Assembly: GCA_963769935.1 (NCBI GenBank)
Contig: CAVYNY010000039.1
Coordinates: 1 to 64,000, forward strand
Origin: an uncultured delta proteobacterium
GTDB lineage: Bacteria > Desulfobacterota > Desulfobacteria > Desulfobacterales > JAFDCJ01
DNA length: 64,000 nt
Reading direction: 5' to 3'
Below, in pieces: positions 4,638 to 8,188 of the stretch. Under the pieces are notes generated by a model. It worked only from the letters and a program-made list of their open reading frames with translations. It was not told the origin of the DNA and did not search any database. Each line of letters opens with the position of its first letter. Within the stretch, counting starts at the first letter, position 1. A program made the translations under genes and the position numbers.

Positions 4638-5750
4638 ATGATTCCTCTCTTGAAAAATCGATCCATCGGAATATCAGATCTTTAAACGATGCTATTTATC
4701 GTTATCGGCAACTTTGTTAAAATTCTAAATTGCCACGCCCTTTTTGATGTCGAGATGGTTTAAACCCAAAAAGTAGTTGTAGCCGATGAATTACAGCGGA
4801 ACAGACTTTGATCGATATTTGATCGGGATTTTCCAGTTCGACGCCCAAGAATTGTTTTAAATGGGAAAGATTTTCGAGCGGCAAACGTTATGAGACAAAG
4901 TTTGACAATCATAAATTCAGCATCGGATCACATTGTGGAAATCCTGGTTAAATTAAGAACATACGTTCCACGGGGGAGTGATGGAAAGCCAAGTGATAAA
5001 AGCGCTATGGTATCTTTCGGAATGTTTGAAAAAATTTGGGCGATCCGCTCATATAGCAGACCGCCCGTTAGAGATTGGGAGAAATATTATGAGTCACATC
5101 CTGCTTTGGATGCTTAATAATCATTTTATCATAACCAATTTCCGTGTCAAATTTTCGTTCATCTAGGACACAGAACATGTTTAGAGAAAGTATTCAGTTT
5201 TCCATCGGTATTTCATACATATTTTTCAGTTTTAAAAATCATGGGCGTTAATATACTTCGAGACGCCAGGCTCCCTCTTAGACCGACTTAAGCTGGTCTC
5301 GGATATAGGTCCCGACCAAATTCAATCCAGGGTGGTTATCAACGCACCTATACCGACGATTTTGATTTTGGGAAAAAATCGGGATTTAGTTTTTCGAACT
5401 TGAACATATCAATAAATAAATCCTTCTCTATTTTTGCCTGAAAATGTCGCTTTAAATAAAGTTTCCCCAAAAAAAAACCGATATATATTGCATATTCAGT
5501 TTCATCTTGTCATCGGTATGGCAAACAGCTTTCAACAATAGGCGAATTATGGAATTATCAGAAGAAAACGGAAGTGGTTGCTGCTTGCGTGAGCAACAAA
5601 ATGGATAAAGCTGTAGAAGGCTATTACTTGCCCCCTGGTGAACTCTGGCGTCAGTCAATTGCGGTATCGAAAAAAGGGGGTCACCCATTAAAGGGCTTGT
5701 CAAGAGAAAAAACACCCCCTTGATCAAAAAAAATCAGTTTTTGATTGACA

Positions 5751-5861
5751 TTGATGGATTCCTAAAAAGCCCGTGCTCCTGGGTTAGCTTTTGAACGCAG
5801 GCGATGGTTTGTGCTGCTGATGGTCTTAAGATAAAGATCAGGCTTTTTAGGAATCCATCAA
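5751..5861. mobile_element. 111-bp MITE/REP-like element with perfect 21-bp terminal inverted repeats, nested in the IS110 end
   Basis: TTGATGGATTCCTAAAAAGCC (5751-5771) and GGCTTTTTAGGAATCCATCAA (5841-5861). Confidence 0.8.
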
Positions 5862-6051
5862 GTTTATAGCGCTCCTCAGCCCAGTGTCGCCTTTTCTCCT
5901 TTTCGCGCCCGCTATTTCTTTCTTATTGGCTTACGGTTAGTATTTTCTGATCCGCATCAGTCACCCATCAGGCTCAAGGCATTTGTGTTTTAAGCTCAAG
6001 GCTTGAAAACACCGCCCCTGGTCCGCTTGGGACCCCAGAAATTCTTCGGTT

Positions 6052-6408
6052 CCATACCGTGTTCAATTGGATGTGTTACAAATCTTGTGGTTATTAGCCA
6101 ACCCCTTATGGACTCACGGCATAGGCGAATCGAGATCTAAAGCGATCGCTGTCTGGTTATTATTGGCGAGTGCAGCAGCTGCCAATCACATCTAATGGTT
6201 TAGTGCCAACCCCTATACCGGCTCACTGCCGCACTCCAACTCTTATCGCATACGCACCTGCCTTTTTAGTCGCTCAAATATTGGTGTCTTTTAAGGCCGA
6301 TCGATGTATCATCGGCAATCAACTTTGATCGATTAGCTGGGTGCGGCAGCTGCCAATCAAAGCTGGTGGTTGAATACCAACCCCTTATCCGGTTGGCTGC
6401 CGCACCCA
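6052..6408 (-). ncRNA. Putative bridge/seek RNA region with three tandem target-binding loops
   Basis: Three stem-closed units share the layout [8-nt guide]-NNTGGT-[6 nt]-CCAACCCCT (at 6078-6106, 6186-6214 and 6357-6385). The unit nearest the transposase matches the insertion site. Confidence 0.78.
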
Positions 6409-6414
6409 AACCGA

Positions 6415-7431
6415 TTAACTAAATAGCTTGTCCTCATCGAAGGCAACCTGATCGCGCATGATGTAGTAAGAGGCCCGAGACAGCTTGTTGCTCAATGCCT
6501 TGATTGCTACCACATTCTTGCTTCTCGCCTTTTTGCTCTGATAAAAACTGTGTGCCTTGGGACAATATCTTTTGGCAAAGTTGGCCGCCTCCACATAGGC
6601 CCAGGCCAGGTACTTGTTGCCATTTTTCTTGTTGTTCTCACCTTTTTTCTTGCCATTGGATATTCTCTTACTTTGCACACATCGACAGTAGGAAGAATAG
6701 TCACCAACTGTAGCAAAACGTCCAATATCCCCGACTTCCAGCATGATGGTCAGCGCTAAAATCTTGCCTATCCCCGGAATCGTAAGCAACTTTGCAAATT
6801 CCTTGCGCAGCTTGGCCTGTGACATGACACGCTTTTCAATGCCTCTAATAATGTGCTTCAAAAATTCAATCGTCGCCCAACTGTTGGTGGCCATCAATAC
6901 TAAATCCGGACAATCGAACAGATCTGCAACATCTATGGCGCTCAGTTTCTTGATTTCATTGTTGGATATCTTAAAACCCAGATTTCTGCTGACCATACTC
7001 TGCAGACTCAAGATCTGCGCCGTTCGCTGTCGCACAAATAAAAGCCTGCGGCGTAACAAATCCCTTACCGCTCGATTCTCCTTGGGGTAGATGTATCCTT
7101 CAGCCAGCAGGTTCAAGCGGTACATGTGCGCCAACCAAAATGCATCCCAGGGATCATCGGTATGCTTCAGTCCCTCGTATTGTTTGATTGCCGAGGGATT
7201 AGCCAAATGAACCTCGTAGCCATTGTCCTGCAGGCCGTCGACCATCCAATACCAATTGAACGTGGATTCGATTACCACCGCCTTAAGGTTTTCCTTAAAC
7301 GGTTCCAGCGCCTTCAAGACTTCCTCCAGCCGGTTGCAATGCCGCTTGCCATAAAGCCTCTTATCGTTGCCGTCGATGATTCCAATAAAATTATTACTTG
7401 AATGCAAATCAATTCCAGCGTATGTTTCCAT
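6415..7431 (-). CDS. IS110-family transposase/recombinase
   Basis: N-terminal GIDLH...IEST...HTDDPWDA (DEDD RuvC-like) and C-terminal LLTIPGIG...GDIGRF...ISNG...GNKYL (Transposase_20-like). Confidence 0.96.
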   Translation of the reverse strand: METYAGIDLHSSNNFIGIIDGNDKRLYGKRHCNRLEEVLKALEPFKENLKAVVIESTFNWYWMVDGLQDNGYEVHLANPSAIKQYEGLKHTDDPWDAFWLAHMYRLNLLAEGYIYPKENRAVRDLLRRRLLFVRQRTAQILSLQSMVSRNLGFKISNNEIKKLSAIDVADLFDCPDLVLMATNSWATIEFLKHIIRGIEKRVMSQAKLRKEFAKLLTIPGIGKILALTIMLEVGDIGRFATVGDYSSYCRCVQSKRISNGKKKGENNKKNGNKYLAWAYVEAANFAKRYCPKAHSFYQSKKARSKNVVAIKALSNKLSRASYYIMRDQVAFDEDKLFS

Positions 7432-7432
7432 G

Positions 7433-7518
7433 GGACACCTCCTAAATCCTATAAAATTAATGTTAGACCCTTGTCTACTGGTTCCATAGCATATTTTGCT
7501 ATGGATAGGGAGGTGTCC
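7433..7518 (-). promoter_or_regulatory. Anti-Shine-Dalgarno hairpin over the transposase RBS
   Basis: GGACACCTCC (7433-7442, the SD on the minus strand) is a perfect 10-bp inverted repeat with GGAGGTGTCC (7509-7518). Confidence 0.65.
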
Positions 7519-7786
7519 TTTCTCAAGCTCGGCAGGCTGTAGTGAGATTTATCGCCAGCGGTCCGTAAGAAAATCTCACGCTTGACGAGCAATAACAGCT
7601 GAATGCAGGAAAAAAAGCAGTATCTATGATTTCCTGCCCTGTTGCTCTTTATATGTATATCAAAGCTTGAATAGTGAATAAGGACTCGCTTCCTTACCTG
7701 AATTTTATGAAATATTCGTTACGTTGTTGGCTGGCTTAACTTTCCAGCTTAGCCGCACTTATCCCTTAAATCGTCATCACGGAGAT

Positions 7787-8188
7787 TTATCGCAATTTAA
7801 ATCGGCCCTGCAGCAGAGGTCTGATACGAGAAATCTTTTCGAAATCTTTGTCACGATGTAAGAGGAAGGCACTATTTTCCATCGCAATCTGCGCGATACA
7901 GCAATCCACGGGGCTGTTGACCGTGACTCCCTTGCGCCTCAGTTCAAAATATATTCCGGCAGCCTCGGGCCATGTATCCTGTGATGCTTCCAGATAGTAT
8001 TGAGTCGAAAGGTATTTTTCCAGCAGCCCCCATTCTTTTTCATTAGCCGCGCCTTGCAGAAGCTCAAGCTGCTGAAATCGGCTGATTGCATAATTTTCCA
8101 CACCAATGGCTTTTTGAAAGGCTTTGACAAAATTGCCGGTTTTGTCTCTGAATATTTCTATCCAAACCGATGTGTCGACCAGGATCAT
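7787..8188 (-). CDS. vapC: VapC PIN-domain toxin
   Basis: MILVDTSVWI...ELLQG...VDCCIAQIA...LLHRDKDF PIN motifs. Confidence 0.93.
   Translation of the reverse strand: MILVDTSVWIEIFRDKTGNFVKAFQKAIGVENYAISRFQQLELLQGAANEKEWGLLEKYLSTQYYLEASQDTWPEAAGIYFELRRKGVTVNSPVDCCIAQIAMENSAFLLHRDKDFEKISRIRPLLQGRFKLR

Follow-up and report, generated by a model that had tools for sequence, protein, structure and literature searches.

How many sites can the guides of a single RNA-guided recombinase be programmed for? The question is raised by an IS110-family element in a 64,000-nucleotide stretch of DNA (the window, to which all positions without a contig name refer) from an uncultured delta proteobacterium. A sequence-only reading of the window had proposed that three stem-closed units following the transposase stop, called A, B and C below, are three differently programmed target-binding loops. 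All three units are present at the positions proposed, and two of the three programmed guides were borne out, since copies of the element lie in sites matching A and in sites matching B; the third was not. We consider it likely, from the sequence comparisons that follow, that the element encodes a two-guide recombinase in which A and B are each programmed and each have site evidence, and in which C is an altered loop and not a third guide. In this element a known RNA-guided insertion system seems to occur in a naturally multiplexed form.

The bounds of the element follow from three near-identical copies and an uninterrupted allele on contig C17, and its ends, gene and accessory repeat are:

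5684..7662 (minus strand): complete IS110-family element, 1,979 bp
5681..5683 (no strand): target-derived core triplet, TCA here and TCG on contig C15, from junction counts and the empty C17 allele
5684..5703 (minus strand): right end with a short sub-terminal inverted repeat, GCCCTTTA, from end comparison
7645..7662 (minus strand): left end with the partner repeat TAAAGAGC, which reads TAAAGGGC in most relatives, from end comparison
5751..5861 (no strand): perfect 21-bp inverted repeat in the right end, with a 69-nt loop, in some close relatives only
6415..7431 (minus strand): intact recombinase gene, 338 aa, with D8, E55, D93, D96 and S258, from Pfam, NCBIfam and alignment

Read on the minus strand, the element starts with TGATATAC and ends with TTTAATGGG, and inside it the gene is flanked by 731 bp of non-coding sequence downstream and 231 bp upstream. 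Its own genome (G000) holds three full copies, on contigs C39 (the window), C11 and C15, with 1 and 3 differences, as well as relics on C10, C12, C13, C18 and C20; no further intact element of the family was found in this genome. The relic at C10:14163-14695 (L160) retains the core RNA and a cut B-like hairpin, and that at C13:569907-570631 (L161) retains part of the gene together with one hairpin and C, with guides of the TGG/TGA type. Two features of the IS110 family are evident: terminal inverted repeats and a true target duplication are absent, and insertion is site- and orientation-specific around a short core. Crossover falls just inside the triplet at 5681..5683. Among relatives the left-junction triplet reads TGA in 99/99 cases, and the right-junction triplet (n=103) reads TGA in 82, CGA in 19 and CGG in 2; the uninterrupted C17 allele of the C15 site has the same G as the C15 junction. 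The right triplet is therefore target-derived and the left one element-derived, and the same observations rule out a 2-nt TC core with an element variant on C15.

The sub-terminal repeat is 8 bp long, matched at 7/8 positions here and at 8/8 in many relatives, in which a repeat of 11 bp with one gap would leave extensions of 7 and 2. The right end contains the hexamer TTGACA (5698-5703), which, judged by its sequence, could act as a -35 box across the circle junction. A promoter scan of the linear form gave no minus-strand promoter and one promoter-like site (3.0 expected) on the wrong strand, and a terminator scan gave 0 terminators; both are uninformative. The 21-bp inverted repeat varies in sequence among the close relatives that have it and is absent in others; it may represent a miniature element that was captured, or a signal for the end of the RNA. 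No Rfam model fits the RNA region over 5300-8000; the single match, a plant microRNA model on the inverted repeat (E 0.094; 25.7 bits against a gathering threshold of 79), is due to chance. Two relatives (L027 and L052) carry a tandem duplication of the final 19 bp of the right end, possibly the trace of a half-match or donor-donor event.

Assignment to the IS110 family, as first proposed, is well founded. The protein has the family architecture, a DEDD RuvC-like domain and a Tnp domain with the catalytic serine, matches PF01548 and PF02371, and scores 183 bits with NCBIfam NF033542 (cut-off 140). D8, E55, D93, D96 and S258 are invariant in 121/121 aligned proteins, and D93, D96 and S258 align with the catalytic motifs of IS621, in a weak match to 8wt6 (E 2e-7).

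The RNA features downstream of the gene are:

6338..6408 (minus strand): free-standing target-binding hairpin A, from matches to the C39 and C11 flanks and covariation
6168..6236 (minus strand): free-standing target-binding hairpin B, from matches to the flanks of the C15 copy, a copy in sequencing run X1 and relative L077
5949..6131 (minus strand): core bridge RNA with a long-range closing stem, loop C and a multi-branch donor-binding region, from a consensus fold
6052..6125 (minus strand): loop C, the target-type loop of the core RNA, with a nearly fixed guide, a changed core letter and a ~10-nt insertion
5961..5968 (minus strand): donor guide AUGGGUGA, invariant in 40/40 aligned sequences and identical to the junction of the joined ends

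Unit A reads TCAAAGCT at 6357-6364 and CAACCCCTT at 6378-6386, with the minus-strand guides AGCUUUGA and AAGGGGUUG at the same two places; unit B reads TCACATCT at 6186-6193 and CAACCCCTA at 6207-6215, with the minus-strand guides AGAUGUGA and UAGGGGUUG. A is closed by the perfect 13-bp stem ascribed to it, 6338-6350 pairing with 6396-6408. A and B are 77% alike over 71 nt, and A, B and C share a common 31-nt family at 68-77%. When folded, the minus strand of 5684-6420 beats 20/20 shuffles (z -4.72). The folding energy of B is -33.7 kcal/mol on the minus strand against -23.2 on the plus strand, and that of A is indifferent to strand (-41.3 minus, -42.0 plus); the earlier proposal of a minus-strand RNA is supported in that the sequence favours such a transcript.

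The structure of the A/B hairpin was drawn by hand from the same sequences as those tested for covariation, namely 68 of 140 units extracted from relatives together with A and B of the window; across these 70 aligned units 93.5% of cells are paired and two-sided change is seen in 14/18 pairs, with 0/500 shuffles scoring as high, and slid controls are 25-48% paired. Second hairpins have intact stems, with 10.2/11 pairs on average, in a detection that favoured intact units and by its pattern left decayed ones uncounted; decayed second hairpins are evident in L085, L108 and L125. The guides of the two hairpins are unlike in 32/34 two-hairpin elements.

Unit C is a different matter. It had been taken for a third copy of the shared hairpin, and this did not hold: relative to A and B it has ~10 additional A-rich letters after the guide and a core of GT, not GA, and it sits within the closed fold of the core RNA, where 6125-6131 pairs with 5949-5955. 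The donor-binding region in 5949-6131, with which loop C folds together, had been missed in the sequence-only reading. In a consensus fold of 40 sequences, two-sided change is seen in 12/32 pairs of this core RNA. Loop C reads ACAAATCT at 6078-6085 and CAACCCCTT at 6099-6107; the guide ends in GT in 105/122 loops among relatives and in GA in 8/122. Because C is found in one-hairpin and two-hairpin elements alike, it is part of the core RNA and not a unit of an array. Nor is it the donor loop: its guides are similar to the target, and the donor is matched elsewhere, at 5961-5968. This match is 8 nt long and on one side only; for the donor's other half, no guide was found beyond the core.

Three loci of one genome (L003, L004 and L005) have an intact-looking recombinase and proper family-type sites, and in them the hairpin and loop C are internally deleted, which suggests either that guides act in trans or that the deletion followed the spread of the copies. 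Two RNA runs gave contigs in the region, one (X19) of 212 nt over 6014-6225 with 5 other letters at depth 4, the other (X18) over 5692-5906; such low-depth contigs give neither strand nor level and may be DNA, neither covers A, and both were left out of the evidence. No joint between the element ends was found in four runs, an absence that carries no weight.

The test of the guides begins with the sites of the element itself, the target lying on either side of it:

5670..5680 (plus strand): G-rich half of the target, from flank comparison
7663..7690 (plus strand): other half of the target, an A-type repeat arm beginning AAGCTTGAA, from empty arms elsewhere

Empty A-type arms are found in the window at 264 and 9826, and on C12, C18 and C32. 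The copies on C39 and C11 have the flank AAGCT, which A matches exactly, as claimed for the present insertion site, and B with two mismatches. The flank of the C15 copy is CATCT, which B matches exactly, A with two mismatches, and C with one mismatch and its altered core letter. Insertions into B-type sites had been predicted and do exist, in the C15 copy, in run X1 and in relative L077. In run X1, from another metagenome, a contig has the element, differing by 2 letters over 6078-7662, and runs on into a B-type arm whose counterpart in the genome, at C38:121440, is empty; the other element end in X1 resembles the C11 flank, the window's own flanks (5500-5661 and 7687-7767) are uncovered, and the two ends cannot be paired because two X1 contigs collapsed. 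L077, with a protein 89% identical, has the same A and B guides and a B-type site. Only 18/7,446 GGGTCR sites in the genome continue CATCT. Copies of one element lying in two site classes, each spelled by a hairpin of its own, constitute genomic evidence for multiplexed targeting in nature; the claim of a naturally multiplexed RNA-guided recombinase would on this evidence stand for two guides and fall for the third. Counts of the predicted 12-mers in the genome are 3 for A (1.01 expected) and 2 for B (0.36 expected), simple enrichment being weak because many B arms read TCG.

Might B nonetheless be an idle duplicate, with B-type insertions arising through a half-match of A to the common G-rich half, or through the guide of a related element acting in trans? 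Half-match insertions make up about half of the IS621 off-target reads in the available text of 10.64898/2026.08.31.748434, and the GGGG half is common to all loops. Against this, the three non-A sites observed for A+B elements, those of the C15 copy, X1 and L077, all have B's five letters exactly; the genome has no other intact element of the family to act in trans, and its C10 relic ends before the second guide and the closing stem. Second hairpins, moreover, retain stems, compensatory changes and lineage-specific scaffolds while their guides vary. We regard an idle B as improbable, and the relatives bear on the same point.

Relatives were collected as 156 loci (76 plus the best 80 of 255), of which 148 reach the gene end and, with the three own copies, make 151 rows; 60 further relative genomes (25 with a match) were left out of the counts. 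Hairpins were counted in the 117 rows that reach the donor motif, near-duplicates and members of the best 80 of 255 included: 63 have one hairpin and C, 43 have two and C, and 11 are of other or deleted layout. No three-hairpin element was found among these 117, a third hairpin called in L103 being judged spurious. On a tree of 83 proteins, close relatives only, the one- or two-hairpin label requires 15 changes (26.5 when shuffled), 12 of them forced by well-supported branches; hairpins have therefore been repeatedly gained and lost. A distant branch (L039-L044, L046, L064 and L074), ~60% identical and mostly labelled Scalindua, shows the same arrangement of hairpin, C and donor region; its left end measures 88 bp, and the first hairpin of L039 is decayed.

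Guides were compared with sites over the five target-derived letters, G-U pairs allowed; rows lacking a left junction (52) or loop C (17) and duplicate rows (6) were dropped, leaving 76 events in 55 element clusters, for which p-values overstate because the relatives are kin that share guides. In the 47 one-hairpin events the guide equals the site in 23 (7.6 expected by shuffling sites) and is pairable with it in 38 (16.2 expected); within the main AG lineage (36 events) the hairpin is exact in 19 (9.2 expected). For the 29 two-hairpin events, hairpin 1 is exact in 14 (3.9 expected), hairpin 2 in 6 (3.1 expected; p 0.056, borderline) and either guide in 20 (6.9 expected), either being pairable in 26 (14.5 expected). 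Hairpin 1 alone fits 13 of these sites, hairpin 2 alone 8, both 5 and neither 3; C's five variable letters could also read 6/8 of the sites fitted by hairpin 2 alone, and only L077 and the C15 copy, plus X1, exclude both A and C. Where hairpin 1 fails, hairpin 2 pairs in 8/11 cases, against 3.0 with shuffled second guides (a smaller set of 24, in which events are over-merged). Elements with an AGATG-reading hairpin account for 6/7 AGATG sites and for 13/69 other sites. The G-rich guide has low specificity (172 paired positions against 164.3 shuffled, p 0.029, n 35). For an idle B speak the 12/76 events that fit no free-standing guide of their own, the 15 changes in hairpin number and the existence of decayed units.

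The same events bear on whether all three loops choose targets, in which case C would be a further guide, broad in scope, for sites of the AGAYYYG type. Nearly all relatives retain the apical stem of C and both of its guide segments, and the guide of C follows deep lineage changes (TGG- and AAG-type): over all 47 one-hairpin events C is pairable in 26 (17.4 expected), an excess that we read as a deep-lineage signal. C is also exact in 3 of the 29 two-hairpin events (0.8 expected, p 0.023), its guide has the GA end in the 8 loops noted above, and six repeat arms in the genome begin TCAAATCTTGATT. Within the main lineage, however, C is exact in 7 of 36 events (6.3 expected, p 0.41) and pairable in 22 (21.7 expected, p 0.55). 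Across all relatives its guide is nearly fixed (AGATT in 54/76 events). It rescues only 2 of the 12 sites that the hairpins leave unexplained; enrichment of its predicted target, which the three-guide proposal implied, failed to appear, the 12-mer occurring 0 times in the genome (0.92 expected), and none of the three genomic copies lies in a C-type site. With the core letter altered in most members and ~10 nt inserted, a third guide in C seems unlikely, and we retain the reading in which A and B are the programmed guides.

What the guides find is itself of interest. The predicted targets had been described as three variants of one host repeat family; they are indeed variants of related repeats, and ends or miniatures of tyrosine-transposase elements fit them better than a host repeat. 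In the genome the A-type and B-type words lead into families of repeat arms, which are often arranged as inverted pairs or form short palindromes. On C11 a Y1_Tnp gene lies between inverted B arms, and on C9 a B arm overlaps the end of a Y1 gene; this direct link is confined to B-type arms, and for A-type arms it comes through relatives such as L104. A Y1 profile built from the genome matches 9/69 left flanks of relatives against 4/1,000 random pieces of the genome, a rough control as the flanks come from other genomes and the E-value cut-off differed. From their sequence and surroundings, the targets appear to be ends and miniatures of tyrosine-transposase elements of a TIRtron-like kind. IS4321 and IS5075, members of the IS1111 group, reportedly also target the ends of other mobile elements. 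TIRtron/TIRYT ends carry the motif GGGGWSAS (PMC3733652, in the available text), and the arms here resemble them in part: they start GGGGTCR, form inverted pairs or short palindromes and adjoin Y1_Tnp genes. B arms fit the motif when they read TCAC, many B arms read TCGC, and A arms read TCAA.

Other elements share this neighbourhood. A group II intron (reverse transcriptase, TIGR04416) is present in five copies in B-type arms, ~11 letters beyond the IS110 crossover: on C15 (L157:1905-3150) and at C17:220458, C13:598858, C11:465037 and C11:193932, with an apparent empty allele at C11:188173. On C15 the IS copy and the intron are stacked, the intron being itself cut by a Y1-transposase element; a 1,214-bp repeat beside this copy is part of the intron, which rules it out as a transposon. 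A PIN-domain gene (7787-8188, minus strand) adjoins the element in the window, between A-type arms at 7660 and 9826, and a stretch resembling its region also follows at C12:50411. Near the C11 copy is a repeat of ~163 bp (e.g. C11:457897-458059) with dozens of copies on most contigs.

Under the mechanism we propose, an IS1111-like IS110 element would transcribe the recombinase, both hairpins and the core bridge RNA from a single strand. The donor region and the joined element ends would be bound by one recombinase dimer, a second dimer would bind either hairpin A or hairpin B, in a separate complex for each, and open the matching site, and strand exchange beside a YGA core would insert the element. 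A would direct it to GGGGTCR-AAGCT arms and B to GGGGTCR-CATCT arms, and loop C would be the core RNA's own target-type loop, retained and mostly unused for site choice. Either hairpin could pair with the core donor region, because the target and donor loops of IS621 come from different RNA molecules and are functional when separated (PMC11208158), split loops are functional for IS622 (10.1101/2025.05.14.653916), and loop-only target RNA dominates for CazIS110-1, with 90.4% of the recombinase-bound RNA (10.1101/2025.10.25.684509), each according to the part of the source available. That last figure, and the finding that a pair of target-bound dimers is unproductive in IS621 excision (PMC13626964, available part), would also suit extra hairpins that mainly regulate, by titrating the recombinase or by ending or processing the transcript, the site matches being a by-product of copying; it is the guide letters, beyond the scaffold, that follow the insertion site across relatives, and we think such a role very improbable.

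Beyond the two-guide recombinase favoured here, the whole clade may, tentatively, have moved target choice from the bridge RNA to an expandable cassette of free-standing hairpins, with the built-in loop C frozen and core-altered. It is possible, at the same tentative level, that the hairpins are duplicated, point-reprogrammed and lost as the element follows variants of tyrosine-transposase ends. If so, this would be a natural split and multiplexed bridge system, and a case of a transposon that gains guides and so widens the set of sites open to it on another mobile element. The layout makes testable a switch of target without a dead state, in which a loop is duplicated and one copy drifts; for engineering it supplies a target module of 70 nt that stands alone and whose permissible variation is known, and loop C, conserved yet altered, is of interest for its role.

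Among known systems, CRISPR- and TIGR-type guide arrays consist of many near-identical, regularly spaced repeats with unrelated acquired spacers. The elements described here have at most two hairpins in the 117 loci (including the best 80 of 255), with variable spacing and point-variant guides. Bridge recombinases have been described as having one target and one donor loop, and the present element departs from that canonical form, with two free-standing hairpins, C and a donor region, in which predicted non-coding RNA loops of the IS110 type match target and donor. In IS621 the one target loop and the one donor loop lie upstream of the gene (PMC11208160). The present system resembles IS621 in its DEDD and serine recombinase and in an internal loop with two guides that read opposite strands flanking a short core; it differs in that the RNA lies downstream, with two free-standing target hairpins and a modified core target loop, and in that the donor region has several branches and one clear guide, of 8 nt. 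The guide order along the element strand would be opposite to that of IS621, going by the description in the available part of 10.1101/2025.10.25.684509.

No description of a layout with multiple or tandem target loops was found in the literature searched, a scope outside which most subscription papers, patents and supplements fell; it is absent from the available portions of PMC11208160, PMC13626964, PMC11187229, PMC13604230 and PMC12288879, and of 10.64898/2026.10.21.760802 and 10.64898/2026.08.14.744561. Fig. S12 of 10.64898/2026.10.21.760802, a source available in part, concerns deviant bridge RNA folds and could include the present clade.

A close likeness, as far as the available text of PMC11187229 goes, is with the IS1111 seekRNA elements ISEc11, ISKpn4 and ISPa11, which share the long downstream non-coding region, short left end, sub-terminal inverted repeats, fixed orientation and lack of a true target duplication; the multi-loop donor region is likewise a feature of the IS1111 group (PMC11208160, available part). 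The repeats here are 8 bp (11 with one gap) against 11-13, with extensions of ~7 and 2 against 7 and 3, and those elements, as described there, have one target specificity each. As in CazIS110-1 (10.1101/2025.10.25.684509, available part), a target loop would act as an RNA of its own and cooperate with a full bridge RNA; there a single bridge RNA is truncated and keeps the same guide, whereas here separate hairpins with different guides adjoin the core RNA. The engineered split bridge RNA of IS622/ISCro4 (10.1101/2025.05.14.653916, available part) similarly treats target and donor loops as separate modules, but it is single-target, and the system described here would be its natural counterpart with two specificities.
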